64,000 nucleotides of DNA from an uncultured Mycoplasma sp. (GCA_902493595.1 CABUPU010000004.1:9958-73957), one strand, 5' to 3'; shown: positions 1 through 49,447, numbered from the stretch's first letter. Numbers and translations: made by a program. Notes: a model not told the origin generated them from the letters alone.

Positions 1-1509
1 CATAGTAAGTTCATACTTAATATTAGATATATCTTGATATTCATCAATAATTATATAATCAAATAATAAATGAGTTTCACTTGTTAATTTTTCAATATAC
101 TTAACTGCATAGTATAATAAATCATCAAAATCAAAGTAATAATATTCTCCACCATAAAGTTTATTTGAATAATAATTATAAAAGTCTAAGAAGTATTTTG
201 CCTCAATCATAACATTTTGTTTTTCTTCACCTTTTAAAGTCATAATATATTTTTTTATAACTGTTTTATCCTCTCTATAAGCAGATGATTTTAAATATTT
301 AATACTTGAGTACATAAAATATTCAAATGGATATACTTGTGAAAGTGGATTTAGACGAAGAATATGTTCATATATTTCTTCATTAGTTCTTTCATTATAT
401 TCAACATTTAACTCTCTTAATTTGTTATCTAAAATTCTAACAATATTTGAAAGTGATGTTCTTTCAATTTCAATAAATTTATTATTATGCTCTTTATGGT
501 ATTTTTCTTTTTCTAATTTTATTTTATTATAGTTTTCATCCTCTAAGCCAAAGTATTCAATATATATTTTTTCACCAGCATAATCAATTGTAAAATCAGG
601 TTTATATATTAAATTATTTTCCATTAGTTCTGGATAAGCTTCTTCATAAGAATATGAAAGACCTCTTTTATAAAGAAAGTTTGCCATTACTGCTTCACCG
701 GCTGATTTAACATAGTCTCCATTTATAGATATAATATTTTCATCTTTCTGAAGTTGCCTTTCAATCCAAGATTTAATTAAATTTATAGTTCCTACAGTTT
801 TGGCTTCATTAAGTTTAACACTTACATAGTATTCTATAAGCTCATCATAAGTATTAAATTTTTGATAGTTATCAATAAAGAATTTGCTAAATACAAAGTT
901 TTTCATTTGTTTAACAGTATCAAAATTATTAATTATTTCAGTAATTTTATTTTTATCTAAATATAAGTTTTTAAAGTACTCTAAAAAGATTTCTCTTTTT
1001 TTATTTCTATCAAGTATAACGCATTTTCGATTATTAAATATTTCTCTAATGTATTCATAACCAAGTGAATGAAATGTTGTTACGTGTGCTGGGATATTAA
1101 AATCTAAGCAAATTCGTTTATCTAGTTCTTCAGTAGCTTTTCTTGTATAACTTAGTACTAATATTTTTTCTGGTAAAATATTTTTCTTTTCCACTAAATA
1201 TTTGACTTTTGATGCCATAGTGGTAGTTTTACCTGTACCTGCCCCAGCAATGATAAGACTATATTTTTCATCACTTAATATGGCTTTACACTGCTCTTTA
1301 TCAAGTTTTATATTAGGATCAATATCTTTATAGAAATTATCAAAGTAATCTTTATTTAACAAATATAACTTTTCTAATACAATGTCATTATAAGTATCAA
1401 TATTAAAGTTAGAGGGCACAGCACCACTATAATTTGCTAACACATTTAAATATAAATCATTTGAAATATATTCATGATTATTATATTTTTTTATAAACTC
1501 CTCTTTCAC
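1..1509 (-). CDS. UvrD/Rep-family DNA helicase, helicase IV-like (N-terminal ~500 aa; 3' end lies beyond the window)
   Basis: Not in the ORF track (edge-truncated; GTG start at 1509 after an AGGTGG RBS). My translation shows Walker A LIIAGAGTGKTTTM, TTFHSLGY, and motif II IIIDEYQDIS at the window edge. An inserted block GEAVMANFLYKRGLSYSYEE..YKPDFTI..IYIEYFG resembles the PD-(D/E)xK-like insert of helicase IV-type enzymes. Extended -10 TGTTATAAT at 1531-1539. Confidence 0.75.
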   Translation of the reverse strand, partial: MKEEFIKKYNNHEYISNDLYLNVLANYSGAVPSNFNIDTYNDIVLEKLYLLNKDYFDNFYKDIDPNIKLDKEQCKAILSDEKYSLIIAGAGTGKTTTMASKVKYLVEKKNILPEKILVLSYTRKATEELDKRICLDFNIPAHVTTFHSLGYEYIREIFNNRKCVILDRNKKREIFLEYFKNLYLDKNKITEIINNFDTVKQMKNFVFSKFFIDNYQKFNTYDELIEYYVSVKLNEAKTVGTINLIKSWIERQLQKDENIISINGDYVKSAGEAVMANFLYKRGLSYSYEEAYPELMENNLIYKPDFTIDYAGEKIYIEYFGLEDENYNKIKLEKEKYHKEHNNKFIEIERTSLSNIVRILDNKLRELNVEYNERTNEEIYEHILRLNPLSQVYPFEYFMYSSIKYLKSSAYREDKTVIKKYIMTLKGEEKQNVMIEAKYFLDFYNYYSNKLYGGEYYYFDFDDLLYYAVKYIEKLTSETHLLFDYIIIDEYQDISNIKYELTM

Positions 1510-1610
1510 ACTGCCACCTACTATAATAGTATTATAACAAAAATTAATTATTTTTTATAGTGAGTTTTATTTAGTTTAAATTTTTTGTAAATATTTTATA
1601 GTATTATATT

Positions 1611-1634
1611 AAAAAAATAGGATATTACTCCTAT
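1611..1634 (-). terminator. Rho-independent terminator after the 151-aa ORF
   Basis: Hairpin ATAGGA-tattac-TCCTAT (1617-1634) followed on the minus strand by a 7-U run (1611-1617). Confidence 0.5.
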
Positions 1635-1642
1635 CTAATAAA

Positions 1643-2098
1643 TTATATAGCAAATACCATCCAAGGAATTATTAACATTAAACTTATTAATAAACACACT
1701 TTATAATCTTTTTTAAATAAGTTAATTATATCTAATGAAGAAAGTATTGAAATAATAACTAATATCATTTGAACAACAGTTATTATAGCGGATATTATAT
1801 GTGAATCATTAAAACCCTCGATGCAAAATATTCCATATATAAAGAATAAAATAATACTAATAATTCTTACTACTTTCTTACTTTTTTCTTCTTTTCTTAT
1901 TAATGATTTACCATTATTTTCAAAATATTTCTCTTCCATTTTGTTTTTATGTTTTAACTCTATTATTTCTTTTTTGTTTTTAGTTTTAGATTCTAATTTT
2001 TCTTTCCAATCATTTTCACGTGCATTTATGCCTTTTTCAATAAGGCTTTCTGCATCAGCCTCAACTTCAACTCCAATTTTTTTAAAATTAACTTTCAT
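1643..2098 (-). CDS. Hypothetical membrane protein (charged N-terminal half, 3 C-terminal TM helices)
   Basis: 151-aa ORF with RBS GAGGTG 8 nt upstream of the ATG and extended -10 TGATATAAT at ~2152-2161. No recognisable motif. Confidence 0.55.
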   Translation of the reverse strand: MKVNFKKIGVEVEADAESLIEKGINARENDWKEKLESKTKNKKEIIELKHKNKMEEKYFENNGKSLIRKEEKSKKVVRIISIILFFIYGIFCIEGFNDSHIISAIITVVQMILVIISILSSLDIINLFKKDYKVCLLISLMLIIPWMVFAI

Positions 2099-2265
2099 AA
2101 ACTATTTCACCTCATTAAATACAATGTTTTTCTCGTAAACTTACATCATATTAATTATATCACGTATAATGTTAAACATAAAGATTTTATAACTATGCTA
2201 AAGGTGTATCAAAAATTGCTTAATAGTTCTAAAGCCCTTTAATATAAACAAAAATGAAAGTTTTA

Positions 2266-2294
2266 GTTCTCTTCAGGGGGCATGCTCTCTTCAG
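2266..2294. repeat. Left copy (internally duplicated) of the CCCCCTGAAGAG(AGCAT) motif
   Basis: Plus strand reads GTTCTCTTCAGGGGG-C-ATGCTCTCTTCAG. It shares TGCTCTCTTCAGGGGG with 14458-14473. Confidence 0.7.
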
Positions 2295-2379
2295 TTAGAA
2301 GAGGCCAAATTGTGTTAAACCCTTTAAATACGGGCCTTTTTATATTGGCATAAACCGTCATTTACCGTGGTTTTTAGTA

Positions 2380-2406
2380 TTTTTTGTACCTAAATTGTAC
2401 CTAAAA
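2380..2406. repeat. 27-bp exact direct repeat, left copy (TTTTTTGTACCTAAATTGTACCTAAAA)
   Basis: Identical 27-mer at 14362-14388 in the same orientation. It is internally a tandem of the 11-bp unit TGTACCTAAAT/TGTACCTAAAA. Confidence 0.85.
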
Positions 2407-2432
2407 AAGACAGTAGTTTTATTTCCACTGCC
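2403..2432 (-). terminator. Terminator of the 886-aa/118-aa operon
   Basis: Minus strand reads GGCAGUGG-aaauaaaa-CUACUGUC (8 bp, two G-U pairs) followed by UUUUUU. The U-run overlaps the end of the 27-bp repeat. Confidence 0.5.
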
Positions 2433-2479
2433 TTCTCGGATAATTTGATTATACCATTTTTATTGATTAATATCAATCG

Positions 2480-2836
2480 TTAAAAAGATCTGCTTCTATT
2501 AAAGATATATCCTACCAATATGCATGAGGCTACATATAAAACTATAAACATAATTATAAATACTGTTATGTTAGATATTAGATATCCTAATATTGTAATT
2601 AGTGCTGTAACATAACAATAACTTATTAAATAGCCAAAGCTTCCAAATGCAGGTTCATCTACTCCTTTGGTGTATCCACATCCAGTTAGTATATATGCAC
2701 AGGAATGCAAGATAGTACCACCAATAAATATGTTAAATAAGTCAGCATATACTTCACTACCTATTATATTTATATAAGGATTTGGTAGAACAAACTGTCT
2801 TATTAATGCACTAATCAAATGAATAAACTTATACAT
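2480..2836 (-). CDS. Small polytopic membrane protein (about 4 TM), partner of the 886-aa protein
   Basis: 118-aa ORF whose ATG lies 2 nt after the stop of the upstream ORF. The RBS GAAGGAGA sits inside the upstream coding end. Hydrophobic throughout. Confidence 0.6.
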   Translation of the reverse strand: MYKFIHLISALIRQFVLPNPYINIIGSEVYADLFNIFIGGTILHSCAYILTGCGYTKGVDEPAFGSFGYLISYCYVTALITILGYLISNITVFIIMFIVLYVASCILVGYIFNRSRSF

Positions 2837-2838
2837 TA

Positions 2839-5499
2839 TTATTCATCTCCTTCTTTTATAACAAACTTGTAGCATTTTGAATTTGGGATTTTTCTTATTG
2901 AAGGAGATATAAATAATTTAAAAACACAATTTCCTTTTAGATATTCTATTTGATCTTCAACACTTCCTTTTTCCTCTAACCATTTAGTGTTCTTTTGTAT
3001 TTCATTTCTTGCACTTGTATTTGTTGAACAGTCTATAAGGTCATAATATACTCCATTTAAATAAGTACCTGACTCTTTTATATCTGGTTCATACATATCA
3101 ACCCTTGGTAAATCTTTTTTCTTAATTAAATAGATATCTCTTGCTTTAGGTATTTTTATTAAATCAATCTTTCTATTATTTATATCGATAGTTTTATCGT
3201 CAAAATTATTTAAGTTTAAAATTCGCCAATTGGATGGGCTTGTAATAATTACATATTTTTCCTTTTCGTTCAAGCCATCTATATATTTTACAAAGTCTTC
3301 CTTAATAACCTCTGCTATACTATCTAATTTTTTTAAATAATCTTTTGAAATTCCAGTAAGTATAGCACGTCCATAATCCTTGGAAATATTATCTAATCCA
3401 TAAACCTCATCAAAAAATAATTCTCTTCCCATTATTTGATTAATTCCAAATAATCTTTTATTTCTTTTATTAATAATTGAATACTTATTATTATCTTTTA
3501 AATATGATGTCAATTCATTTCCATTTTCTATCTCCTTAAAAATAATTTTTTTGAAACTCTCAGTTTTTTCTGAACTTATTTTGTTATTCTTAATATATTC
3601 TGCTTCAGCTTTTTTACATTCTTCCACTATTTTTTCTAAAACACTTATTAAAGATGAATTGTTGAAATTAACATCTAATACTGCCTCTAGCTTACTTTTC
3701 TCATCTGACTTCACTATATCTAATAATCTTTCATAAAAATATTTATTATCCTTTGAAATCAATTCAGAATTTATATCATCTGAATTTGAATATCCTATAC
3801 CAAACACATAAATGAATTCTTTCAAAATAAATATGTCGTCAACATGAATTCCGGACCATGAATTCCTATATTCTTTATTCTCAAATCTAAAATCAAAATG
3901 ATAATATACATCATGGACATTAGAAATAAAATTGTAATATTTTTTAAAATATTCTATAGCTTCATTTTGACTATAAAAATCTACAAAATTACTCTTAACA
4001 TAATTTATTAGCTTCTTTAATTCATCTTTATCTTCTTCATTAAATACATCCTTATTTGATAGAATAATTAACCCATATATAAACCCAAACGAAAATTGAA
4101 TCTTAATAATATCGTATGAATCAGGTTCACCATCAATAAATCCATTATAATCAAAAATAACATTATTAAATAAATCATTAATAGACTTGAATTCTTTTTT
4201 TATTATTAAATCAAACAAGAAATTCATTAAATTTGATAGTAAAACATCATAATATATAGAATCACTATTCTCTTTTATAGAATAGTAATCATACCTAAAT
4301 AATGAATTAGTAAAATCATATGATGTCTTTCTAACATCATCAGTAATTTCTAACTGTTCAGTATAACAATAATAAATATAGTTACTTAAAAACCTGTATC
4401 TTTCATAATCCTCATTAGAATAAGCTAAACTAGCTAACGTGCTTAAAAAATTTGCTAACTCTTTATTTTTATGTATATCTTTATAATATTTAATATATAT
4501 TTTTCTTATATATTCATATGAAATATCTAATAAAGATCTCATATTATTTTTATATAAAAAATTATAAAAATTAAATAATCTACTATCAGAATCAAAATTA
4601 TCATCTATATTAGTTTCTGCTAAAGAAAATAAATCATTAATTATCAAGTTAATTTCATTATCAAGATATGGAATACTATCATTTAATAAACATGAATTTC
4701 TTATACTGTCTTCATAATTTATGATTTCGTTTTTGCAATAAGCAACTGTCACACCTCTATTTATTTTTTCTCCACCTTTTAGTTTAAGAATTATTAAAGG
4801 ATCTATATATACTATAAGTTCTTTTCTTCTTCTGTTTTCTTCTTCTATCTTATCTATTATCGCTTGTAATGATCTACAACTATATGATTTAAAGATTCCA
4901 CTTTTATTTGCTTTTATTGGAATATAATCATCAATATTTTCTACATCAAAAGAAAAATATTTTTTATTGTCTTTCACAAATTTATCTATAGATTCATTTT
5001 TCAATTTCTTTTTTGAATTTTTAATGTTTCTATTATGAATTTCTATAAGTCTTTTTTCAATATATTTATCATATTCAGCAGAAAAATAGTCACTATCAGT
5101 ATTAAGTTTGATAGCTATTCCAAAAAGTTTAATTGTCAACCAAATAGAACGACAAATAAAAATATTTAATAACAATTCTACTACAAAAAATAAAATTTTG
5201 AATAAATCTGCACATTCTTTATTATATGGTATTATCTCTTTTATGATGCATAGTGATAATATAAGGATTGAAAAAGTCATGATACCTTTCATTCTTGTTT
5301 TTTCTAAAACAAATCTTTTGTGTGTTTCAACCTTCTTATCATTCATCGTCTCTGCAATAAATATTATAATTGCTACTAATACTCCGACTATCCCAACAAA
5401 CGCATCTATTCTCACACTTCCATTTAAAGGTTCAAAAATATTTACGTTCATCCAAATAATAAAATTATAAACATTTTTCATAAATTCTTCTATATTCAT
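2839..5499 (-). CDS. Large uncharacterised membrane-anchored protein (3-4 N-terminal TM helices plus ~750 aa soluble region)
   Basis: 886-aa uninterrupted ORF in a very AT-rich context, with RBS GGAGGT 6 nt upstream. TM segments lie at residues ~29-132. I see no Walker A, nuclease, protease, TIR, SIR2 or HEPN motif. The post-TM segment vaguely recalls DUF2254-type proteins (from memory only). Confidence 0.8.
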   Translation of the reverse strand: MNIEEFMKNVYNFIIWMNVNIFEPLNGSVRIDAFVGIVGVLVAIIIFIAETMNDKKVETHKRFVLEKTRMKGIMTFSILILSLCIIKEIIPYNKECADLFKILFFVVELLLNIFICRSIWLTIKLFGIAIKLNTDSDYFSAEYDKYIEKRLIEIHNRNIKNSKKKLKNESIDKFVKDNKKYFSFDVENIDDYIPIKANKSGIFKSYSCRSLQAIIDKIEEENRRRKELIVYIDPLIILKLKGGEKINRGVTVAYCKNEIINYEDSIRNSCLLNDSIPYLDNEINLIINDLFSLAETNIDDNFDSDSRLFNFYNFLYKNNMRSLLDISYEYIRKIYIKYYKDIHKNKELANFLSTLASLAYSNEDYERYRFLSNYIYYCYTEQLEITDDVRKTSYDFTNSLFRYDYYSIKENSDSIYYDVLLSNLMNFLFDLIIKKEFKSINDLFNNVIFDYNGFIDGEPDSYDIIKIQFSFGFIYGLIILSNKDVFNEEDKDELKKLINYVKSNFVDFYSQNEAIEYFKKYYNFISNVHDVYYHFDFRFENKEYRNSWSGIHVDDIFILKEFIYVFGIGYSNSDDINSELISKDNKYFYERLLDIVKSDEKSKLEAVLDVNFNNSSLISVLEKIVEECKKAEAEYIKNNKISSEKTESFKKIIFKEIENGNELTSYLKDNNKYSIINKRNKRLFGINQIMGRELFFDEVYGLDNISKDYGRAILTGISKDYLKKLDSIAEVIKEDFVKYIDGLNEKEKYVIITSPSNWRILNLNNFDDKTIDINNRKIDLIKIPKARDIYLIKKKDLPRVDMYEPDIKESGTYLNGVYYDLIDCSTNTSARNEIQKNTKWLEEKGSVEDQIEYLKGNCVFKLFISPSIRKIPNSKCYKFVIKEGDE

Positions 5500-5569
5500 C
5501 TTTTACCTCCAATCAAAAAAAGAGCATATTCCATCTTAAAAATGAAACACACTCTATTATTTAATATAT

Positions 5570-5578
5570 ATTATAGCA
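5570..5578 (-). promoter_or_regulatory. Extended -10 (TGCTATAAT) for the 886-aa/118-aa operon
   Basis: Sequence match in the 137-nt gap between the hsdS stop and the 886-aa ORF start. Confidence 0.4.
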
Positions 5579-5636
5579 TTTTTTTATAATGTTTTAAATA
5601 ATTTTATATATTATTATGTAGTATATAGTTTTTTTA

Positions 5637-7082
5637 TTAAACTTGATTTATAAGATTAATTAGGCTATTAACTCTATTTAATATTTTTTCTTGTTCTTCA
5701 AATGGAGGCAAAGGAATATACATATTTTTTAAAATATCAAATGGTGGAATATTCTTTATAGCTGTTCCCTTACCTTTTTCATTTGCCTCTTTTTTTAATA
5801 CATAATCAAAATATAATAAGAAGAAGTCTCTATAATTATTATCAAATAAAGTGATTTTCATAAGTGCTTGATTAATAATACCTACTCTAGCTTCTTTTGG
5901 CATTACATATGTTTCGCCAATTGTTCCAGCACATGATACTATTATATCATTTGGTTCTACAGAAAAAGATTTCATAGATTCATATTTTTTTCTAGAAATA
6001 TAATAATCTCCCAATGTGTAATCTTTTTTTATTGCATTTTGCTGCTCATAAACTTTAATTGCATCTTCACTATATGGAATAAACATAGATTTAGTTAAAG
6101 AACTTCCAAAAGGGCCTTTTTTATATATACCTATATTACCCAATCTAACCCATATCCAATTTTGAGGAATAGAATATGGAACATTATTTGAATTTATTTC
6201 CATTACTTTTTTATCTTTCTTTAAATTATGTCCATTTCTAAATTCACTTTCTATTTTAAAAACATCAATTTGTTTATCTAATGGATTATTCTTTATTAAT
6301 TCACCGTGAATAGCTTTATCAAATATAAGTATTTTCAGTTTTTCTTTTAATTTTTGAACTCTACCAATACTCTTTTCCAATTCATTTATTAATTCAAATG
6401 TTTTATCAATCTTTTCACATAATTCTTTTTGATATTCAATATCAGGAATGCAAATTGGAGTATTAATAATTATTTCTCGAGATATATTAGGTTGTGCTCC
6501 TCCAATGCCCGCATTAATAAAATAATCCCTTAATGATAATAAATAATAAAATAAATATTTTGATTCTATACCATAATATATATTACAAGAACAACATGCT
6601 TGATTAGTAGTTAATTCAATTTCTGATATTCCTAGTTTTCCAATTGTTGCACCATACATAGCAATCATAACATCACCGGGATGAACAAATTTTAAAGAAC
6701 ACTCTTTTAATGCTTTTTCAGTAATTTTTTCTTCAGTATTATTTATATATCCATCATTGAGTTCACCAGTTTTAAGCCATGCTATAGTACCATTATTATA
6801 ATATTCTTCATTACTTCTCAATGGAGTTGCACCTGCACCCCAACTTCCAATATTTCCTAGTCTATCCCATACCCAATTTGTTGGAGATTTATATATTTTT
6901 TCATCATCAGTTATATCTTCATCTAATTTATCTTTCTTTATTTTTTTCTGATTAATGAGATCATTTCTTATTCCATCATATTTTTCTTTAATATCTGAAG
7001 ATAGCTGTTTTCCATCATTTGGTAATAATTGACCACTAAAGGCCATCTGAAGAATCTTTTTTCTTAGCTTACTTACATTCAT
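5637..7082 (-). CDS. hsdS: Type I restriction-modification specificity subunit
   Basis: 481 aa with two similar halves (NWVWDRLGNIGSW.. and NWIWVRLGNIGIY..) separated by coiled-coil spacers, typical of the two target-recognition domains (TRDs). Stop and start are coupled to hsdM. Confidence 0.9.
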   Translation of the reverse strand: MNVSKLRKKILQMAFSGQLLPNDGKQLSSDIKEKYDGIRNDLINQKKIKKDKLDEDITDDEKIYKSPTNWVWDRLGNIGSWGAGATPLRSNEEYYNNGTIAWLKTGELNDGYINNTEEKITEKALKECSLKFVHPGDVMIAMYGATIGKLGISEIELTTNQACCSCNIYYGIESKYLFYYLLSLRDYFINAGIGGAQPNISREIIINTPICIPDIEYQKELCEKIDKTFELINELEKSIGRVQKLKEKLKILIFDKAIHGELIKNNPLDKQIDVFKIESEFRNGHNLKKDKKVMEINSNNVPYSIPQNWIWVRLGNIGIYKKGPFGSSLTKSMFIPYSEDAIKVYEQQNAIKKDYTLGDYYISRKKYESMKSFSVEPNDIIVSCAGTIGETYVMPKEARVGIINQALMKITLFDNNYRDFFLLYFDYVLKKEANEKGKGTAIKNIPPFDILKNMYIPLPPFEEQEKILNRVNSLINLINQV

Positions 7083-7084
7083 AT

Positions 7085-8560
7085 TTATTCTCCATTAATC
7101 AACAAATCTAACTTTGATACAATATTTGTAATATTATTTGTTTCTTTTTGTATTTCACTAAATAATTCTTCAATTGTAATATCATCTAAATCATCATCAT
7201 CAGTTATCCATTTTATATCTAAATTAAACTTATTATTCTTAATGTCATCATATGAAAATTTTCTCCATCTTCCATTTGGATTTTCTTCTGACCAAGTTTC
7301 AGTTCTATCATGAATATTGTCTGGATTAAAACACTTAACAAAATCGTCTAAATCTTTATTTTTTATTGGCTTTTTCTTTAAAGTAAAATGCATCCCAGCT
7401 CTTAAATCATATATCCAAACTTCTTTTGTTTGTATTTCTTTAGACGCAGGTTTATTATCAAAAAATACGACATTTGCTTTCACTCCAGGTTTATAAAATA
7501 TGCCTGTTGGCAATCTTAAAATTGTGTGTAAATTGGTTGTTTCCATTAGTTTTTTTCTAATAATCAATCCTCCTGATCCTTCTTCAAATAATACATTATC
7601 AGGTAATACAACAGCTGCTTTTCCATTAATCTTTAACAAAGTATGAATATGTTGAACAAAATTAAATTGTTTATTAGAACTTGTAGTCCAAAAATCTTGT
7701 CTATTATAAACTAAATCCTCATCTTCTTGTTCTCCATCTTCATTTGTTATTGTTAAGGATGCTTTCTTACCAAATGGAGGATTAGTTAAAACATAGTCAA
7801 ATCTTTCACCTGGATCGGATAATAACGCATCATTTCTTGTTATTGGTGATTTACCATCAATGTCACTTATATTATGCATAAATAAATTCATTAAACATAA
7901 TCTATACGTACTTTGAACTATTTCCCATCCTCTAAAGGTACTATATTTTAAGAAATTTTTATCCTTTTCATTTAAATCATAATTATCCTCAATAAACTCT
8001 TTTGATAATAATAGAAAACCACCAGAACCACAACATGGATCTACTATGGTTTTATTTGGTTCAGGTCTTATGCATCTTACCATTGCATCAATAACTGGAC
8101 GAGGTGTGAAGTATTGACCTGCTCCACTTTTTGTATCTTCTGCAATTTTTTGAAGTAATCCTTCATAAATATCACCTTTAACATCTGAAGATAATGCAGT
8201 CCATGTTTCGCCGTCGATCATAGTAATTATTTTAGATAGCATTGCAGGAGTAGATATCTTATTTATTGCTCCTGAATATATTTCCCTTAACATACCATCT
8301 TGTTCTGATAATGACTCTAAAATGCCATTATAATATTTAAATAATTCTGCACCTTTTTTTGATTTTAATTCATCCCAACTGCAATTATCAGGTAACTTAA
8401 TTCCTTTTTCAAATGGTGGTTTATTATATTCATCTATCATTTTTAAAAATAATAAATATGTTAGTTGTTCAAGATAATCTTGATTGGAAACACCATCATT
8501 CATTAGGACAGTTGCCATGCTCCATACTTTTTTATTAATTGTTGAAGTTCCCTCACTCAT
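7085..8560 (-). CDS. hsdM: Type I R-M N6-adenine DNA methyltransferase subunit
   Basis: Motif I DPCCGSGGFL, motif IV LTNPPFG, and an HsdM N-terminal-like region. Confidence 0.95.
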   Translation of the reverse strand: MSEGTSTINKKVWSMATVLMNDGVSNQDYLEQLTYLLFLKMIDEYNKPPFEKGIKLPDNCSWDELKSKKGAELFKYYNGILESLSEQDGMLREIYSGAINKISTPAMLSKIITMIDGETWTALSSDVKGDIYEGLLQKIAEDTKSGAGQYFTPRPVIDAMVRCIRPEPNKTIVDPCCGSGGFLLLSKEFIEDNYDLNEKDKNFLKYSTFRGWEIVQSTYRLCLMNLFMHNISDIDGKSPITRNDALLSDPGERFDYVLTNPPFGKKASLTITNEDGEQEDEDLVYNRQDFWTTSSNKQFNFVQHIHTLLKINGKAAVVLPDNVLFEEGSGGLIIRKKLMETTNLHTILRLPTGIFYKPGVKANVVFFDNKPASKEIQTKEVWIYDLRAGMHFTLKKKPIKNKDLDDFVKCFNPDNIHDRTETWSEENPNGRWRKFSYDDIKNNKFNLDIKWITDDDDLDDITIEELFSEIQKETNNITNIVSKLDLLINGE

Positions 8561-8573
8561 TTTTTAAAACCTC

Positions 8574-11330
8574 CTAAGCTAATAAAGCATAATTTAATTC
8601 AGCTAATATTTCTCTAAATTTTGCACCAAACAATTGGAAAAATTTAGCTAATCCACCCTTATTATTAAAAGGTGTTAATTCTAAATCGCTTTCTTTTATA
8701 TTCATTGAAATAGCAATATGATCTTTTATCATTCTTAACCATTCCATTTGTTCTTCACTGAATTCTCCATATCCTTCGTTTTGTTTAAAGCACCACTCTT
8801 TAAATTTAATATTAACAGTTGTATTAAATGATTTTAATTCAGTTGTTTGCTTTAATTCAAATTTAATTAAAGATATGATATCAGCAAGTTTGTCTTCTAC
8901 TCTTGTAGATACTTTATCACCATAAATAGTTGAATAAGCTTCCCATAATTTAGTATTTGATAGAAAATACGGAGCACTCATCATTTTTTCATATAATTCT
9001 TCAACCATTTTATAAGTTAATGGTCTATTTTTATAACTTTGATTATAAATAATATTTAATGCATCTATTGAATCTTTATTTTCTTCAATAAATTCTGCAA
9101 ATGTTTTAATTATTTCTTTGGCTTTTTCTTCTTTGTTTGTATCCCAGCCAGAAAACTCAATTGAATCTATATTTTCATTATCAATAATTTGATAATGCTT
9201 ATCTCTCGCTTCAAGAATAAATTTTCTAACTTCTGGATTATATATTGGTTTAATAGCTAAATCAATAATCTCTTGTTTTGTTGATTCATATTTACTATTT
9301 TCATCTGAAGATTCAATTTTTAAATTAATATAATCATCATCAAATGCATTTAAAATATTCTTCGCAACATCTATTATTGCTACACCGTCAGTTAATTTTT
9401 TAAATTCTTCTTTATCTTCTGTTTTAAGCACTTTATCCAAATTAATAAATCTATTTGCTATTGATGTCAATGTATCTTCATCTTTAGCACCAAATGCAAC
9501 GCTATTAAGTAAGTTTTTAAGTGATTCACTTGGTTTTCTTTCTAATTGTCTAGAAGTTGTTTTTTGTGATGATGTAACACCTACAGCATCTACAACTATA
9601 AATCCTAATTTTCTTTCTGTTGCTGATGGTGATACTTTTTTTAAATTATCTAGATCTAAAGTTCTTGTAGCTCTACCTAGCATTTGTTCAAAGTAATTCT
9701 TGCTTCTTACATCTCTCATGAAAATTAAACATTCAATAGGTTTAACATCTGTTCCTGTAGCAATCATATCTACTGTAACAGCAATTCTTGGATAATAATC
9801 ATTTCTAAATGCACTTAAAATTGATTTTGGATCTTCATCAGAGCCATAAGTAATTTTTTTACAAAATTCATTACTTTCACCGAATTCTTCTCTTATAATA
9901 TCTACGATATCATTAGCGTGACTATCTGTTTTAGCAAATACTAATGTTTTAGGAACTTCTTTTCTTCCTGGAAACATTTCTGTCAATACCTTTGACTTAA
10001 ATTCTTTAATAACATTTCTAATTTGCGATGGATTAACGATATCATTATCAAGTTGACTTGCTGAATAAACAACATCTTCATCTAATTGAGACCATCTTTT
10101 TTCTTTAGATAATCTTTCTCTTGTTTCAACAACTTGTTTTAATATACAAGCACCATGTTTTGTGATATTTGTTTCTATTAAATATGTTCCCTGTCTTCCA
10201 ACATTAACATCATCTAAAACAGCCTGTTCATGAGAATACTCTGATACGACATTTTCATTAAAGAAAGCAAATGTCCTTTGATCTGGAGTAGCTGTTAATC
10301 CAACTAAAAATGCATCAAAATAGTCTAATACTTGTTGCCATACATTATATATTGATCTATGACATTCATCGATAATTACAACATCAAAGAAATCTATTGG
10401 ATATTTTTTGTTATAAGATACTTCTTTTGGTCTTTCATTTTTAAATGACTTTTCTGATAATGATGATTCTTCATCTCTTTCATCCAATTCAAATCCTCTC
10501 AGAATTGAATACATTCTTTGAATTGTACTAATACATACATGAGTGTCATTTGGAATATATGATGAATTAAGTCTTTTAACATTGTATAATTCTCCAAATA
10601 ATCTACTATCATCATTTGGTCTATATTTTCTAAATTCTTCTTCAGCTTGTTCACCTAAATTTTTAGTATCAACTAAGAAAAGAATTCTTTTTGCCTTTGC
10701 ATATTTTAACAATCTATATACGGAAGTTATAGCAGTAAATGTTTTACCAGCACCTGTTGCCATTTGAATTAAAGCTCTAGGTTTATTTTCAGAGAATGAT
10801 TTTTCCAAATTAACAATAGCATTAACTTGACAATCTCTAAATCCATTTACATCAAGTTCTGGAAATTGTTTCATTCTATTTCTTAAAGTATCATTATCTT
10901 TTAGTAATTGTTCTAATTCTTCTGGTGTATGAAACATAAATATTTCTCTTGATCTTGCCTTTTCATCTTTGTAGTCACAAAATCTAATTATAATGTTTGT
11001 ACATTCATAAGCAAATCTGATTTCAGGTTGTTCTTTTAATCCTCTTAATCCACTTTTAATATATCTTAAAGATTGTTCCGCTACAACACCTAGCGTAGTT
11101 CCTCTTTCTTCTTTTTTAGCTTCAATAACACCAACAGGTTTACCTGCTATAAATATTAAATAATCTACAGGTCCACTATTGGTTTGTGCCTCTCTTAAAA
11201 TAACACCTAAAGATGCTGTAGGATTAAACGAATCAATATTTTGAATTACAAAACCTGCTTCTCTTAATTTTTTATCAATATCTATTCTTGCTTTTGCTTC
11301 GGGATTTAAATTTAAATCTTCTAATTCCAT
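8574..11330 (-). CDS. hsdR: Type I restriction endonuclease subunit R (EcoEI-type C-terminal domain)
   Basis: PD-(D/E)xK region VDYLIF..GVIEAKKE, Walker A QMATGAGKTF, DEAH-like IIDECHRS, and an EcoEI_R_C-like tail. The track ORF starts at 11357, but the ATG at 11330 has RBS AAGAGGT upstream, so I prefer 11330. Confidence 0.93.
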   Translation of the reverse strand: MELEDLNLNPEAKARIDIDKKLREAGFVIQNIDSFNPTASLGVILREAQTNSGPVDYLIFIAGKPVGVIEAKKEERGTTLGVVAEQSLRYIKSGLRGLKEQPEIRFAYECTNIIIRFCDYKDEKARSREIFMFHTPEELEQLLKDNDTLRNRMKQFPELDVNGFRDCQVNAIVNLEKSFSENKPRALIQMATGAGKTFTAITSVYRLLKYAKAKRILFLVDTKNLGEQAEEEFRKYRPNDDSRLFGELYNVKRLNSSYIPNDTHVCISTIQRMYSILRGFELDERDEESSLSEKSFKNERPKEVSYNKKYPIDFFDVVIIDECHRSIYNVWQQVLDYFDAFLVGLTATPDQRTFAFFNENVVSEYSHEQAVLDDVNVGRQGTYLIETNITKHGACILKQVVETRERLSKEKRWSQLDEDVVYSASQLDNDIVNPSQIRNVIKEFKSKVLTEMFPGRKEVPKTLVFAKTDSHANDIVDIIREEFGESNEFCKKITYGSDEDPKSILSAFRNDYYPRIAVTVDMIATGTDVKPIECLIFMRDVRSKNYFEQMLGRATRTLDLDNLKKVSPSATERKLGFIVVDAVGVTSSQKTTSRQLERKPSESLKNLLNSVAFGAKDEDTLTSIANRFINLDKVLKTEDKEEFKKLTDGVAIIDVAKNILNAFDDDYINLKIESSDENSKYESTKQEIIDLAIKPIYNPEVRKFILEARDKHYQIIDNENIDSIEFSGWDTNKEEKAKEIIKTFAEFIEENKDSIDALNIIYNQSYKNRPLTYKMVEELYEKMMSAPYFLSNTKLWEAYSTIYGDKVSTRVEDKLADIISLIKFELKQTTELKSFNTTVNIKFKEWCFKQNEGYGEFSEEQMEWLRMIKDHIAISMNIKESDLELTPFNNKGGLAKFFQLFGAKFREILAELNYALLA

Positions 11331-11504
11331 ACTACTACCTCTTACTTCCCATTTCATCTCACATATTCAATAATAATTATAACATACAATTCGACAAATT
11401 TTGATATTTTTCGACCAATTCGTACCAGAAATTACCAAATTGTATTAATAATCTTGACTATTTTTTAATTTTAAGTGATTAATACAAGGAATTGGAGGAA
11501 TTGT

Positions 11505-11828
11505 ATGATTAGAAAATGTACTGATGAGGATATATCTGATGAAGAATTAGAGAAAGTTATAAATCCTTTTTATGATAATTATAATGAGTATATTATTACT
11601 TATGTATGCCTGAAGTAATTGCATTTTATATAGCTAGTTTTTATAGTAGGAATGCTATGTGGAAGCAACATTTTATCAACATTATAATTCAGCTAAAGAT
11701 ACATTTAATGTTAGTGATGATGAAAATTATGAAAGTATTAAAGCTGAAGTAATTAAGTTATTAAGAATGAAATATTCTTTAGAAATTATTAGTGAAGATC
11801 CATTAGTTCTTAAAAAAATCGAGTATTA
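11505..11828 (+). pseudogene. Frameshifted small ORF of unknown function
   Basis: GGAGG RBS then MIRKCTDEDISDEELEKVINPFYDNYNEYIITYVCLK-stop. The reading continues in two other frames and ends ..EATFYQHYNSAKDTFNVSDDENYESIKAEVIKLLRMKYSLEIISEDPLVLKKIEY-stop. Confidence 0.4.
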
Positions 11829-12413
11829 GTTTTTGTTCTAATATTTTCAATCTTTGCAGTTCCTTCTGCCAAGCATTCAAGATCATAATGAAAATAGTAC
11901 TTATCAGCTCTTCTTTTCGTAGTAAGCGGTATCATTGTCCACAATTTTTTATCGCTTGTTGGCCTCCATAATATTGCTGATCTTAGCTTTCTTAATTCAC
12001 TGCCAATACCTATTCCAAAATCAACCAAGTAAATTGCATTTTGAATTAATTTATCTTCTTCTACATATTTTTTATTAATTATATATTTATCTCTGCACCA
12101 TTTTATATAGCTTATTCCCTCAAAATCACTTTTTACATTCTTGTAATATTAAATTAAAATCCTTTTTAGTTAACTTTAATGGTTTACCATGAACATAAAT
12201 ACATCTATTCATTTTAGATCTATTATAATCAGCAATTTTATTTACATCTACATATTTGTTAATGGAATTGTAATAAATACAGCCTTCTTTTTCTTTAGAT
12301 TATACCGGCATTCCAACATAATGATTTGCTGAAATATCATAGTTAATTAAAACCCATTCCTTATCAACTCTTTCATTAGTTTCATATATTTGTTTAAAAT
12401 TAATTGTTAACAT
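11810..12413 (-). pseudogene. Decayed PemK/MazF-like toxin locus (at least 2 frame disruptions)
   Basis: GAGGTG RBS plus ATG at 12413 gives MLTINFKQIYETNERV.., which stops after 37 codons and resumes in other frames. The last frame (..KWCRDKYIINKKYVEEDKLIQNAIYLVDFGIGIGSELRKLRSAILWRP..MIPLTTKRR) resembles long PemK/MazF-family toxins but has no in-frame ATG. Confidence 0.5.
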
Positions 12414-12430
12414 TTACTACACCTCGCTAA

Positions 12431-13516
12431 CTAATTACTCCATTTGTATCTTTCTCTATATTTAGCCATAAAAGAGTAATCATTAATATCGTTTTGAATT
12501 CGACCTATAACAATACCCGGTTTAACATTTTGAGAATCTGCAAACCTTTTTATTTCAGATAAACTTATATTGCTATTTTTAATAAAGTCTTCATAATCAT
12601 TTTGATTAATTAACATGTTTCTAGCAAACTTATCAGCTTCTTTTTCTTCTTCACTTTCAATAAATTGATAATCTATATATTGATTAGCAAAATCATCATT
12701 TGTTAAGTGGCCAATCTCATGGAACAAAGTAAACCAAAATATATCAGAGAAAGATTGTCTTATAGTCATACATAAAACAACTTTACCATTTCTTTTTTGA
12801 ATGAATCCTTGAACAGGTGCTCCAGTAAAATGTTTTACGACTTCAAATGCTATACCACACTCAGCAAAAATATTTTTCAATTCAACAACCATATCATTTG
12901 CAGGTAGAAACATTGTCCTTTTTATGTCTTCATATTTCGTTTTTAGTTTTTCTATATCATAACTATTAGTAATTTTTATTTTATTTGTAAAATACTCACA
13001 TAATTTTTGCCATGCATATAATACATATACATTTACTTTATTTGCCTTAGAACCTCTAAAAGCAGCTTGTTGAATAGATAAACTTGGTATACTACATAAA
13101 TTGTTTAAATTAAGAAATTTTCTCATATTTAAAACTGTTATTTCTTTTTTAGAATTACATTCAATTATTTCTGCATTTTCACAAAAATTAATAACATCTT
13201 TTAAATCTTTTAATATATTTAATTCTTTTTCTTCAATATTACTTAAACTATTAATTTCAAAAACTTCTTTATCATAGTTACTTTGAAGGTTCATCCAAAA
13301 ACTAGCAGGTATACCTAAAGCATACTCTAATCTATTTGCAAACTCAGATGATATATCCTTCTTTCCCCTCACAACCTCACTAATATGTTTAGGAGAATAT
13401 TCTGTTCTTATAGCTAATTCTTCTTGCGACATCTTCTTTTCTTCCAAAACTTCTTTAATTGTTTCCCCTGGATGAACTAACAAATCAAGGGATAAGCCAT
13501 TCACATTTCCCATCAT
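12431..13516 (-). CDS. higA: HigA-type HTH antitoxin fused to an ImmA/IrrE-family zinc metallopeptidase domain
   Basis: N-terminal XRE/HigA HTH (LVHPGETIKEVLEEKKMSQEELAIRTEYSPKHISEVVRGKK) and a C-terminal HEXXH (LFHEIGHL). Overlaps higB by ~32 nt. Confidence 0.8.
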   Translation of the reverse strand: MMGNVNGLSLDLLVHPGETIKEVLEEKKMSQEELAIRTEYSPKHISEVVRGKKDISSEFANRLEYALGIPASFWMNLQSNYDKEVFEINSLSNIEEKELNILKDLKDVINFCENAEIIECNSKKEITVLNMRKFLNLNNLCSIPSLSIQQAAFRGSKANKVNVYVLYAWQKLCEYFTNKIKITNSYDIEKLKTKYEDIKRTMFLPANDMVVELKNIFAECGIAFEVVKHFTGAPVQGFIQKRNGKVVLCMTIRQSFSDIFWFTLFHEIGHLTNDDFANQYIDYQFIESEEEKEADKFARNMLINQNDYEDFIKNSNISLSEIKRFADSQNVKPGIVIGRIQNDINDYSFMAKYRERYKWSN

Positions 13517-13832
13517 GATAATCTGCCACTCCTTTCAAATTAACTTTCTTACATTTTCTTAACGAATCATCATCTAACATTTCAGATAATGGTTCTACTA
13601 TTAATCTATAATTTCTATTAATTTTAATACCAAAAAGATTATCTAAATTTCCTACAAGAGGATGAGGATCACCCAAGCCGATATCTAAATACTCTTTAAA
13701 ATTATCTGCTGCCCTAAGTTGATCTATTCTCTGTTTTAGTGCTCTTGTCATATCAATACCAATAGTCTTCTTTAAGTTTTCAATATCACTTAATTTCTTT
13801 TCTAACCTTCTGTTATCAGCTTCGATTTGCAA
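13485..13832 (-). CDS. higB: HigB-type (RelE/ParE superfamily) toxin
   Basis: Pattern ..LRAADNFKEY..GDPHPLVGNL..FGIKINRNYRLIVEP...VADYH matches plasmid-maintenance killer HigB proteins. The likely start is TTG at 13832 (AGGAGG 7 nt upstream) rather than the track ATG at 13850. Confidence 0.72.
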   Translation of the reverse strand: MQIEADNRRLEKKLSDIENLKKTIGIDMTRALKQRIDQLRAADNFKEYLDIGLGDPHPLVGNLDNLFGIKINRNYRLIVEPLSEMLDDDSLRKCKKVNLKGVADYHDGKCEWLIP

Positions 13833-13927
13833 CCTCAAACCTCCTCTCATTTCTAAATTACCTAATAGGTAATTTTATTATATGCTATTTTTTTCAAAAA
13901 TACAACCCTTTTTACAAAAAAAGTCAT

Positions 13928-14116
13928 CTATTTTAATTCAGACAACTCTTCATAATTTTCTTCATTACCCATCCTTTTTAAATAATCTTTACCACCATCA
14001 ACAGCAACAGCACCGCAAGAGCACTTTTTATAATCATTTGTACTTTTAGACTCTATGATATCTCCGCATTTTTTACATTTGATTTTATTACTAATTATTT
14101 CTTCTTTCTTTTCCAT
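13928..14116 (-). CDS. Small zinc-ribbon protein (CxxC..CxC)
   Basis: CKKCGD..CSCG motif. The ATG at 14116 is preceded by GAGGAG; the track start at 14131 contains that RBS. Confidence 0.55.
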   Translation of the reverse strand: MEKKEEIISNKIKCKKCGDIIESKSTNDYKKCSCGAVAVDGGKDYLKRMGNEENYEELSELK

Positions 14117-14237
14117 AATCCAACTCCTCATAAGTATTATACCGTGATCTTATACTAATCATATCCTACCGTTTGCGGTATAATATTTTTGTAATCATAC
14201 GGATATTATCAATTTTGTCCGTATTAATGGTAAAAAG

Positions 14238-14343
14238 TCCATTGAGAATTTTTGCCACTTTTGCCACTTTTTCTCAATGAGATTTAAAATAAATAAAAAA
14301 TCCATTGAAGATTTTTGCCACTTTCGGCATTTTTTCTCAATGA
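14238..14343. repeat. Two tandem 43-bp imperfect palindromic units
   Basis: Units at 14238-14280 and 14301-14343. Arms CATTGAGAA/TTCTCAATG surround a ~22-nt spacer carrying TTTTGCCAC twice. On the minus strand each unit is a hairpin followed by a U-run. Confidence 0.75.
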
Positions 14344-14361
14344 ACCATTCTTAATTCAAAT

Positions 14362-14388
14362 TTTTTTGTACCTAAATTGTACCTAAAA
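14362..14388. repeat. 27-bp exact direct repeat, right copy
   Basis: Identical to 2380-2406. Confidence 0.85.
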
Positions 14389-14435
14389 TTATTTTATCAA
14401 CATTAGTGCCTCACAAACCCATATAAAATGGGCAC

Positions 14436-14473
14436 AAAAAATGAGAGCACGGTTAAATGCTCTCTTCAGGGGG
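14436..14473 (-). terminator. Terminator hairpin preceded by a CCCCCUGAA motif
   Basis: Minus strand reads CCCCCUGAA-GAGAGCA-uuuaaccg-UGCUCUC-AUUUUUUG. It may end the NUDIX transcript or a short independent RNA. Confidence 0.55.
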
Positions 14474-14600
14474 AAGAACAACCTACAACACCACCGTGAT
14501 GAGAACAACATCCTCTTTTAGCATAAACACTAATAGGTATTAATAAAATAATTAATAATAAAATCTTTATATTTTTCACTTCAAAAAACCTCATATTAAA

Positions 14601-14996
14601 TTATTCATATCTTTCCATTACATCTTTTGCAAGAGGTATATCTGCAGGAGCTAAATCATAATTTAATAAATCATTTATTTTTACCCAAGCATATTCTGAG
14701 TGTGCATGAAGTTTAAAGTTACCATCAATATATTCACATTCATATAATTTAAGTATTACATTACCATGTGGATAATTAAAAGTGCTTTGTGATATAAAAT
14801 CTTTTGCTTTAACTTTTACATCAAATTCTTCATAAATTTCTCTTTCTATAGCTATTTTTTCATCTTCATTTTCTTCGACTTTACCACCAGGAAATTCCCA
14901 TTTACCTTTTGCATCTTTATCCGTAGATCTTTTTGCAATTAATACTTTATTATCCTTAAAAATTAAAGCCGCTACTACATTTATATCTTTACTCAT
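14601..14996 (-). CDS. NUDIX hydrolase (MutT-like nucleoside triphosphate pyrophosphohydrolase)
   Basis: Nudix box GKWEFPGGKVEENEDEKIAIEREIYEEFDV; 131 aa. Confidence 0.85.
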   Translation of the reverse strand: MSKDINVVAALIFKDNKVLIAKRSTDKDAKGKWEFPGGKVEENEDEKIAIEREIYEEFDVKVKAKDFISQSTFNYPHGNVILKLYECEYIDGNFKLHAHSEYAWVKINDLLNYDLAPADIPLAKDVMERYE

Positions 14997-16220: not shown

Positions 16221-16326
16221 CAAAGTACGCATTTTTTGAAATATAATTTTGCCTAACTTATGCTAAAAAATCACTATTTTTTAGTGAAAACTGTCAAACA
16301 AAAAAATCTCTTTCGAGATTTTAATT
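16221..16326. repeat. ~106-bp direct repeat, left copy (3' UTR/terminator module)
   Basis: About 95% identical to 18852-18958 (1 indel and ~4 substitutions). Contains the terminator AAATCTC-tttc-GAGATTT and ends exactly at the dpnB stop codon. Confidence 0.85.
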
Positions 16327-17938: not shown

Positions 17939-17947
17939 TTGGCCTCC

Positions 17948-18851: not shown

Positions 18852-18958
18852 CAAAGTACGCATTTTTTGAAATATAATTTTTGCCTAACTTATGCTGAAA
18901 AAACACTATTTTTTAGTGCAAACTGTCAAACAAAAAAATCTCTTTCGAGATTTTAATT
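18852..18958. repeat. ~106-bp direct repeat, right copy
   Basis: See 16221-16326. It ends at the stop codon of the cotD-like gene. Confidence 0.85.
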
Positions 18959-49337: not shown

Positions 49338-49447
49338 AAAAAAATGCGGCCTGTAAAAAGGCCGCTCAGGGGGTTTTGGTTTGACTATTCCTCACATTAT
49401 AATTCGTAAGGTTTTAGTCAGGCATAGGTTTTTATTTGTCCTATGCT
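49338..49447 (-). ncRNA. Candidate small RNA C (C-rich single-stranded seed, family unknown)
   Basis: Own promoter at 49454-49482. Contains hairpins CAUAGG..CCUAUG and CCUUAC..GUGAGG, the unpaired segment AAUAGUCAAACCAAAACCCCCUGA, and the terminator GCGGCC-uuuuuaca-GGCCGC followed by a U-run. Paralogous to 51616-51705. Ends are approximate. Confidence 0.45.

Follow-up and report, generated by a model that had tools for sequence, protein, structure and literature searches.

The window, a 64,000-nt (64-kb) stretch of an AT-rich genome (about 25% GC) from an uncultured Mycoplasma sp., contains a block of accessory genes, the two ends of which are referred to here as the helicase side (left) and the NUDIX side (right). 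Starting from the helicase side, the cargo comprises two membrane proteins of 118 and 886 aa (2480–5499, minus strand) and the type I restriction-modification genes hsdS, hsdM and hsdR (5637–11357, minus strand; Pfam Methylase_S, N6_Mtase/HsdM_N and ResIII/EcoEI_R_C). Two decayed genes follow: a frameshifted copy of a 108-aa gene (cluster c13; 11505–11829, plus strand), recognized by tblastn, and a pseudogene of a 243-aa PemK/MazF-like toxin (cluster c45; 11813–12413, minus strand), which is frameshifted and truncated at residue 212. Beyond these, all on the minus strand and assigned through Pfam, lie a 361-aa HTH plus IrrE/M78-like protein (12431–13516), a HigB-like toxin (13485–13850) and a DUF7695 Zn-ribbon gene (13928–14131; 1.8e-28). 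The family of the 118-aa protein (cluster c7) provides the final gene before the helicase-side end in 11 other loci, and the DUF7695 gene (cluster c1, 26 members) comes first in most relatives when entering from the NUDIX-side end. The gene list of a first-pass annotation of this DNA, which named membrane proteins, hsdS/M/R, decayed toxin genes, a HigB/HigA-like pair and a Zn-ribbon, was correct, and its proposal of an accessory unit bounded by repeats is supported insofar as the block is horizontally acquired and strain-variable.

A 27-mer, TTTTTTGTACCTAAATTGTACCTAAAA, occurs exactly at 2380–2406 and 14362–14388, on the plus strand in both cases, and is longer than any other exact direct repeat around the block; sequence identity around the two copies ends at the edges of the 27-mer itself. 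Each copy is a tandem of an 11-bp unit (AGGTACAATTT and AGGTACAAAAA when read on the minus strand), and the half-site TGTACCTAAA has four exact occurrences in the window, all of them inside the two copies. A second motif, M2 (ATGCTCTCTTCAGGGGG), is present exactly at 14457–14473 and with three mismatches at 2264–2280 and 2282–2298, giving three matches in the window versus 0.02 expected. The resulting order is M2–27-mer ... 27-mer–M2, with M2 outside each 27-mer, and the two motifs are associated parts of the ends of the block. The exact repeats, their 11-bp tandem structure, and the second shared motif and its order had all been reported in the first-pass annotation and were recovered here, the 27-mers at identical coordinates; the left-hand M2 copies are near the 2266–2294 that it had given. 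The probability is negligible that the 27-mer represents a dispersed intergenic repeat (REP/MITE-like) or matches by chance beside accessory genes. Although a GC content of about 25% favours low-complexity coincidence, the chance expectation is none (100 shuffles gave 0 matches at ≤3 mismatches); just two copies exist in the 64 kb, with 0 further matches at ≤3 mismatches, rather than many scattered ones, and the surroundings of the repeat in >100 species are of two fixed, conserved kinds. We consider this reading refuted by the shuffles, the copy number and the fixed contexts. A third copy of the 27-mer, which had been claimed at 11422–11444 as splitting the block, was rejected as well: it is undetected at ≤3 mismatches, lies within an intergenic stretch conserved as ordinary sequence in relatives, and is regarded as chance.

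Comparison with about 110 loci of uncultured low-GC gut Bacilli and with sister-strain contigs draws the boundaries at a decamer within M2, the core CCCCCTGAAG (minus strand), with copies at 2271–2280 and 14464–14473. On the NUDIX side, cross-species conservation starts sharply at CCCCCTGAAG; its limit on the helicase side is CCCCCTGAAG together with a variable terminator, and a conserved end module of about 39 loci extends as far as the core there. Presence/absence and replacement polymorphisms within species break at the decamer on both sides, and every strain-level breakpoint observed falls at it. Specifically, sister strain L125 (and likewise L126 and L130) has an 8.8-kb element with its own integrase separating the island from the NUDIX/peptide flank; the decamer occurs at each end of this element, which is absent from L127 and from the window. 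At the other end, a different, Gabija-carrying element in L169 meets the identical helicase-side (downstream) flank exactly at the decamer. Because both conservation and strain polymorphisms break at this outer motif, the 27-mers are not the borders, contrary to the first-pass annotation; the true ends lie 75–99 nt further out at CCCCCTGAAG, and the island proper, as delimited by sequence comparison, is 2271–14473 (12.2 kb), with the core as the predicted point of recombination. An empty site with a single copy, which had been suggested as a check, was searched for at the window's own locus and none was found; that the island itself integrated is therefore inferred from neighbouring elements, which are polymorphic at this core.

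The sequences between cores and 27-mers, which lie inside the cores in direct orientation, are themselves conserved (coordinates refer to minus-strand features). The NUDIX-side core is followed inwards by the 75 nt of module A (14389–14463), nearly invariant in 51 loci with its hairpin loop included, which bears an element-borne terminator hairpin, GAGAGCA...TGCTCTC (14443–14464), and then GCCC-N9-GGGTTTG. Next come the 27-mer and an operator-like module B (14231–14343), conserved across species and composed of a 50-nt imperfect palindrome (CATTGAGAA...TTCTCAATG) that is present as two direct repeats. At the helicase-side copy, variable cargo ends with terminator hairpins precede the 27-mer, and it is followed by module C, which spans the 99 nt to the core (2281–2379) and shows >90% conservation across an alignment of 36 loci taken from different species. 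Module C contains the hairpin CTCTTC-TAAC-TGAAGAG, corresponding to the second M2-like copy (2282–2298), and the tandem ACGGTAAAT/GACGGTTTAT. In the window, as read from the sequence, the last cargo operon closes with an intrinsic terminator at 2407–2436 (AAGGCAGTGG...CTACTGTCTT with a T run into the 27-mer), and hairpins of the same type stand ahead of the 27-mer in several other species. These arms bear on the possibility that the 27-mers are themselves the recombination sites, either as attL/attR cores or as substrates for homologous deletion, with 2407–14361 as the mobile unit. As noted, no longer exact direct repeat surrounds the block, and RecA-dependent recombination has a lower length limit close to 27 bp. 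However, conserved element sequence runs 75 and 99 nt past the 27-mers to CCCCCTGAAG, the observed strain breakpoints are all at the decamer, A–27-mer–C scars account for 0 of 119 junctions with the exact 21-mer core of the repeat, and a variant element (b) has the outer sequence in common with the window and departs from it ahead of where the repeat would lie, making this explanation very improbable.

Among GTDB species genomes, 111 stretches contain the exact 21-mer core of the repeat, nearly all of them from uncultured Bacilli, 'Tenericutes' or Erysipelotrichaceae MAGs, and the element family is widespread in uncultured low-GC gut Bacilli. The genome-wide copy number, which the first-pass annotation had recommended checking, is one or two per complete chromosome, always at island ends. 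About 107 of the 119 junctions fall into two classes, located at one or the other island end: conserved A, 27-mer, then conserved B with the DUF7695 gene; or variable cargo end, 27-mer, then conserved C. A lone junction called as 'AC' (L048) is a misclassified variable end. In L046, a tandem C–core–A–27-mer–B arrangement provides an attP-like junction as expected between accreted elements. This distribution argues against the earlier idea that the 27-mer is a transcription-factor operator (OmpR/WalR-type) or a replication iteron, controlling downstream genes and not recombination. Such a role would suit the hexamer-N5-hexamer geometry with its 11-bp spacing and the location of the copies upstream of minus-strand transcription units (the Zn-ribbon operon and a 151-aa gene); in addition, intact relatives encode a phage replisome organiser, and replisome organisers belong to an iteron-binding class of proteins. 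Against this, the one or two copies per chromosome at island ends do not mark regulon promoters or an origin, and a response regulator accompanies the repeat in none of the clustered loci. Moreover, the nearest start codons are 230–280 nt away, with a terminator-like hairpin intervening on the left, the genes downstream of the helicase-side copy vary by species while module C is constant, and the repeat type tracks the integrase type in elements b, c and d. We thus consider an operator or iteron function unlikely.

No integrase homologue was found in the block or elsewhere in the 64-kb window. The earlier statement that there is no recombinase accordingly holds for the window, but not as an intrinsic trait, as close relatives possess a tyrosine integrase. 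Of the 25 relatives for which the sequence extends far enough, 15 encode a 369-aa protein (Phage_integrase, 2e-28; Arm-DNA-bind_4, PF14657, 3.9e-5, above the family cut-off) on the opposite strand, 2.5–4 kb in from the end, and the next gene specifies an HTH plus Peptidase_S24 (CI-like) repressor. An integrase was not found within 4.5–8 kb in the other 10, and the copies found are mostly truncated. In close relatives, the integrase and repressor occupy precisely the place at which the window has a deletion junction (11813–11843), defined by homology breaks against L053, L099, L069 and L105. From 14473 to 11841, the window is 88–95% identical to the first three of these, the match ending inside the PemK-like gene; from 11843 to 11459, it matches the c13 region of L105, in which the c13 gene lies past the integrase (past both integrase and repressor in L087). 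A deletion at this point (about 11813–11843) removed the genes for the tyrosine integrase and the CI-like repressor together with the 3′ end of the PemK-like gene. No relaxase, type IV secretion or conjugation/transfer genes were seen in the available stretches of the relatives, some of which encode a phage replisome organiser; the parent element may therefore have been prophage-like or a satellite.

Among elements that share the core, the 11-bp tandem repeats found at corresponding distances are not the same: element b has GGGAACAACTCGGGAACAAG, element d has TAGGTACCCAAATAGGTACTCA and TTTTAGGTACCCATTTAGGTACTTAA (one per end), and element e has TGCACAGTTTCTGCACAACAA. In elements b, c and d, the repeat type switches at the same position along with the integrase type, and the three integrases are about 51% identical overall and 35–47% identical in the first 75 alignment columns. 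Since the repeats differ and each occurs with its own integrase, we interpret the 27-mers as putative arm-type integrase-binding sites just inside the true ends, one on the helicase-side arm and one on the NUDIX-side arm. The 27-mer could instead bind an excisionase, a repressor or a replication protein. In an IMG/VR phage (L012), arrays of the same 9-mer flank a tRNA-like fragment on both sides, and the integrase shares 27% identity in the catalytic domain only, with no N-terminal similarity, indicating that repeats and arm domains do not correspond one-to-one.

Heterobivalent att sites of the lambda type are known from the P/P′ arms of lambda Int and the DR2 repeats of Tn916 Int. The island is similar in possessing a short crossover core, at which polymorphisms break on both sides, and direct repeats of about 10–11 bp on both arms, roughly 60–125 nt from the core; element d, too, has its own tandem repeats on both arms. 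The N-terminal Arm-DNA-binding domain (PF14657) is found in the integrases of relatives, the gene being absent from the window, and the reconstructed attP measures about 240 bp. Unlike lambda-type sites, each arm has a single tandem pair, identical on both arms, and these sites are putative, being recognized from sequence. In addition, the core flanks are direct repeats (GAAGAGAGC on both sides) with no evident inverted pair, as opposed to the inverted core-type sites expected, which counts against the likeness.

The block is thus quite probably a decayed integrative island of the tyrosine-integrase family, which has lost its integrase and kept both att sites, with the 27-mers as putative arm-type sites. 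Integration and excision would proceed by site-specific recombination within the short core, leaving a core at both ends; the paired 11-bp direct repeats of the 27-mers, in the same orientation, would dock the N-terminal domain of the cognate integrase, and joining both island ends would rebuild a 238-bp attP. With its integrase deleted, the island would lack autonomous movement; with both att sites intact, it fits the definition of a cis-mobilizable element (CIME) given, together with the accretion model, in PMC5704250. As in CIMEs, the island retains the attL and attR of integrase-bearing relatives, in the form of cores and arm modules at both ends, and its integration genes were lost by deletion from an integrase-bearing element, as apparent from the junction described above. 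We infer that the island can still be mobilised, which could occur through excision by a cognate integrase acting in trans, or through insertion of an integrase-bearing element at a core, which would carry the island along (accretion). An arrangement of the latter type is present in L125 (also L126 and L130), where an integrase-bearing element of the same core specificity stands in tandem at one att site. CIMEs and site-specific accretion are described for ICESt1/ICESt3-related islands of Streptococcus thermophilus (Pavlovic 2004 and Bellanger 2011, as cited in PMC5704250). In contrast to CIMEs, which derive from a conjugative or mobilizable parent (an ICE or IME), the parent element here looks phage- or satellite-like (integrase, CI-like repressor, replisome organiser) and not conjugative. 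The target in the window, too, is different: it is neither fda nor a tRNA gene, but the 3′ end of a 37-aa ORF, the stop codon of which falls within the NUDIX-side core. In many species, the elements target the 3′ end of a small-RNA-like gene located downstream of recG. The island is thus an element of an ordinary type, from a group of gut bacteria that has received little study.

The cargo of restriction-modification, toxin-antitoxin and similar systems resembles that of defence islands and hotspots, in which anti-phage cargo is located on integrated mobile elements (PMC10201445). Alternative occupants of the site carry Z1/AIPR/Dcm, Gabija-like, GmrSD, AbiE, RloB/AAA_21 and Fic genes. Beyond the co-localisation described for such islands, the hotspot would here be explained by an att core common to paralogous integrases. 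A more speculative proposal, to which we attach limited confidence, is that these integrases (b, c, d and probably e) use one crossover core and have diversified their arm repeats and arm-binding domains, which would permit tandem stacking without mutual excision, with integrase-less remnants as passengers. If true, stacking would build and reshuffle the defence islands of reduced-genome gut Bacilli. The native single site under this proposal would be the terminator of a C-rich small RNA gene beside recG. An unannotated small-RNA-like gene with no Rfam match is located downstream of recG in the window (49338–49446, minus strand); its 3′ end (CCCCCTGA plus terminator) corresponds to the insertion point of the element family in at least 14 other species, and is unoccupied in the window genome.

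The 12-kb block outlined by the first-pass annotation is an island that belongs to a tyrosine-integrase family and has had its integrase gene deleted; the repeats seen there are real and non-random, and its borders lie at the second shared motif (M2), which is the att core, rather than at the 27-bp direct repeats. Because the genes of the region are all on the minus strand, it is described here in minus orientation. The 27-mer TTTTTTGTACCTAAATTGTACCTAAAA occurs exactly at 2380–2406 and 14362–14388 on the plus strand, and reads AGGTACAATTT AGGTACAAAAA on the minus strand. No further match at up to three mismatches was found in the 64-kb window, nor any in 100 shuffles, and a degenerate third copy reported at 11422–11444 was not recovered by this search. 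Identity between the two copies does not extend past the 27-mer. The M2 motif near each 27-mer is likewise supported: it is exact at 14457–14473, with three-mismatch relatives at 2264–2280 and 2282–2298 (three matches observed against 0.02 expected), and on the minus strand it includes the decamer CCCCCTGAAG. A sigma-70 promoter within the 27-mer was considered and dropped, as the sequence gave no acceptable –35/–10 spacing.

Among GTDB species genomes, the exact 21-mer core of the repeat was found in 111 stretches, nearly all of them MAGs of uncultured low-GC Bacilli, of 'Tenericutes' or of Erysipelotrichaceae; it is also present in two IMG/VR contigs. After all junctions were oriented alike, two classes accounted for ~107 of 119. 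Class 1, as at window 14362–14388, consists of a conserved module A, the repeat, and then a conserved module B and a DUF7695 Zn-ribbon gene. In class 2, found at 2380–2406, variable cargo ends in a terminator and is followed by the repeat and by the conserved module C (~99 nt). Both classes lie a few kilobases apart on several contigs, and none of the 119 junctions has the form A–repeat–C. The first-pass annotation had likened the repeat to response-regulator or iteron sites, a reading that fails on the restriction to one or two copies per complete chromosome and on the division into two end classes; a common dispersed intergenic repeat fails equally on this copy number and on the two fixed contexts. 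Module B itself contains two 50-nt direct repeats (14231–14280 and 14294–14343, 88% identical), each a long imperfect palindrome (CATTGAGAA...GCC GAAAGT GGC...TTCTCAATG). These repeats precede the DUF7695 gene, are kept in dozens of species, and may be an operator or a structured leader.

The limits of cross-species conservation provide one view of the borders. Conservation has a sharp onset at CCCCCTGAAG on the class 1 side and reaches as far as the decamer on the class 2 side, where a variable terminator hairpin follows; window 14473–11841 aligns at 88–95% to loci of three other species, starting exactly at the decamer. Strains of the same species, between which the site is hypervariable, provide another. 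Looking up the exact NUDIX protein (14601–14996) in public assemblies led to contigs from human-gut metagenomes, in which the genes downstream of the NUDIX gene form three or more alternative sets: (a) Z1/AIPR/DUF4420/HATPase/Dcm genes, (b) an element with a tyrosine integrase, and (c) the window's own set. Variant b does not differ from the window up to and including CCCCCTGAAG, a terminator hairpin and ...GGTTTGTGAG, and diverges afterwards. In three same-species contigs (L125, L126 and L130) island c is separated from the NUDIX/peptide flank by an 8.8-kb element d, which is bounded by the decamer on both sides and absent from L127, a further contig, and from the window. Besides TnpV and an AAA_25/DnaB_C protein, element d encodes an integrase, of 306 aa in L126 and 371 aa in the other two contigs. 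In contig L169, element e, with Gabija-like and other defence genes, is joined exactly at the decamer to an identical helicase-side flank. These two same-species comparisons, the insertion of d and the replacement by e, place the crossover point at CCCCCTGAAG, and the decamer junctions on both sides therefore delimit the island as 2271–14473. The 27-mers sit 99 nt and 75 nt inside the two core copies and so are not the borders for which they had been taken, since both the conservation limits and the same-species junctions lie at the outer decamers; presence/absence polymorphism among same-species strains was seen for element d, with its breaks at the decamer. The same polymorphisms eliminate GCCC-N9-GGGTTT, found in both arm modules, as the crossover site. 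The predicted empty junction TTCTTCCCCCTGAAGAGAAC had no match in an exact scan of the metagenome contigs, and a broader scan with TTGTTCTTCCCCCTGAAG gave 34 matches, of which the two relevant ones were occupied (one by d, one by b); neither scan yielded an empty site for the window's exact locus. The 151-aa protein of the left flank was also tried as a look-up, giving five contigs only, and proved to be an indel among strains.

Several further features of the locus vary. The HATPase_c_3/Z1/DUF4420/AIPR and Dcm methylase occupant lies downstream of the NUDIX gene in L001, L004, L006 and L008; in this variant window homology stops at the NUDIX stop codon, and a 37-aa ORF and the core are missing. 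The L169 occupant (1–9060) encodes SieB, T5orf172, Fic and a Gabija-like OLD-TOPRIM ATPase with a UvrD helicase. Strains with the same island differ in hsdMS (window 5637–8560): hsdM (491 aa) and hsdS (481 aa) are separate genes in the window, L129 and L131, and the counterpart in L125–L128 is one hsdM-like gene of 685 aa that matches Methylase_S weakly. Beyond the helicase-side core, within 2193–2260, a degenerate module A copy TATATTAAAGGGCTTTAGAAC and a degenerate arm repeat TTTTGATACACCTTTAGCATAG (2193–2214, minus strand) suggest the fossil end of an older element. The adjacent 151-aa membrane gene (flank region 1643–2098) is absent from L125 and L127, and the UvrD-like helicase gene that follows it belongs to an ORF cluster (c24) that recurs beside island ends in other species.

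To trace the missing recombinase, ORFs of all loci were clustered, and integrases were counted over relatives with at least 4.5 kb of sequence. In 15 of 25 such relatives a 369-aa protein matching Phage_integrase (2e-28) and Arm-DNA-bind_4 is encoded on the opposite strand, 2.5–4 kb inside the class 1 end, followed by a CI-like repressor (HTH and Peptidase_S24) and, in some relatives, by a phage replisome organiser; most of the integrase copies are truncated. Homology of the window to three of the other loci (L053, L099 and L069) ends at 11841, within a PemK-like gene that is a frameshifted pseudogene in the window (11813–12413). From 11843 the window matches a 108-aa gene (cluster c13). In L105 this gene is found past the integrase, and in L087 past the repressor as well, indicating that integrase and repressor have been deleted from the window's island. 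The earlier observation of no recombinase thus holds for the full 64 kb, which contains no integrase homologue, and acquires an explanation from intact relatives that possess one where the window shows a deletion. All 22 contigs with the window's exact HigA-like protein share the integrase-less layout.

Four elements (b, c, d and e) share the core but differ in the 11-bp tandem direct repeat that each has at equivalent positions: AGGTACAATTTAGGTACAA in both arms of c; GGGAACAACTCGGGAACAAG at the 27-mer position in b; TAGGTACCCAAATAGGTACTCA ~60 nt from the core on the integrase side of d, with TTTTAGGTACCCATTTAGGTACTTAA ~115 nt from the core at its other end; and TGCACAGTTTCTGCACAACAA ~105 nt from the core in e. 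The integrases of b, c and d are ~51% identical with nearly identical catalytic motifs, and are more diverged (35–47%) over the first 75 alignment columns. Such a pattern is expected for the arm-type sites of heterobivalent tyrosine recombinases, of which lambda Int and Tn916 Int are examples. When the two ends of the window's island are joined, the result is an attP-like site of 238 bp (27-mer, 99 nt, core, 75 nt, 27-mer), and a C–core–A–repeat–B junction between tandem elements in L046 has the form of this joint. The architecture and the co-variation with integrase type suggest that the 27-mers are probably arm-type integrase-binding sites. Caution comes from a phage contig (L012; IMG/VR UViG_3300042261_000330, 2520–2800), in which two copies of TGTACCTAAA, the same 9-mer as in the island repeat, lie beside an integrase gene and four more ~220 nt away; a tRNA-like 3′ fragment, not called by ARAGORN, lies between these arrays. 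The phage integrase is 27% identical to the island integrases, in the catalytic domain only, and the phage was rejected as a source of the cognate enzyme.

At least 14 species have their class 1 end on the downstream side of recG. The stretch from recG to the core holds, in these species, a promoter and a ~100-nt transcript-like unit with two hairpins, ending in ...CAACCAAAACCCCCUGA and a terminator; 13 of 21 predicted pairs show compensatory changes. This small-RNA-like gene emerges as the usual target of the island family. Rfam gave no match at gathering thresholds for both island ends and the recG-linked RNA in the window and 18 loci, and none at E ≤ 1 for the helicase-side end and the recG-linked RNA. 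The gene is unannotated, is conserved on the downstream side of recG in 15 or more species, and has a TTGACT-17-TATCAT promoter and a C-rich single-stranded tail CAAACCAAAACCCCCUGA ahead of the intrinsic terminator. The window's copy (~49338–49446, minus strand), downstream of recG (49519–51492, minus strand), is unoccupied, with the 3′ end CCCCCTGAGCGGCC...GGCCGC-T7. The class 1 end terminator is nearly invariant, loop included, and the class 2 end terminator varies between hosts. Under the proposed model, the element would give the targeted gene a new 3′ end, and the host's own 3′ end would come to lie on the element's far side. Elements that insert into tRNA or small-RNA genes usually work in this way. 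A tRNA or tmRNA target was rejected, as no tRNA genes lie near the island ends and L012 holds only its tRNA-like fragment. The window's island occupies a secondary site: its core overlaps the stop codon of the 37-aa ORF that lies downstream of the NUDIX gene. This ORF (14466–14579, minus strand, GTG start) has a signal-peptide-like N-terminus and a Cys-rich tail KRGCCSHHGGVVGCSSP, has no Pfam match, and is uncalled by gene callers in sister contigs.

One site-specific recombination system thus explains a strain-variable defence region of abundant, uncultured human-gut Bacilli. An accretion step is part of a published model for cis-mobilizable elements (PMC5704250), which the window's island resembles in keeping both att sites after the loss of its integrase, and the sister strain represented by L125 displays this step. 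The island differs from the streptococcal examples of such elements in three ways: its parent has a phage-like or satellite-like look, the stretches available showed no conjugation genes, and its target is another. The defined core, the 238-bp reconstructed attP, the candidate arm sites and the four related integrase/arm pairs offer material for direct tests. For annotation, the lesson is that the island border is a short outer motif and not the longest exact repeat.

Nearby, a DpnII-type restriction-modification cassette (16321–18778; two methylases and the DpnII endonuclease) is flanked by 95-nt direct repeats (16232–16326 and 18864–18958, 89% identical). In sister strains L001–L005 a 132-aa gene lies between these repeats instead, and L006 has both; the locus looks like a cassette exchange at a repeated leader sequence.
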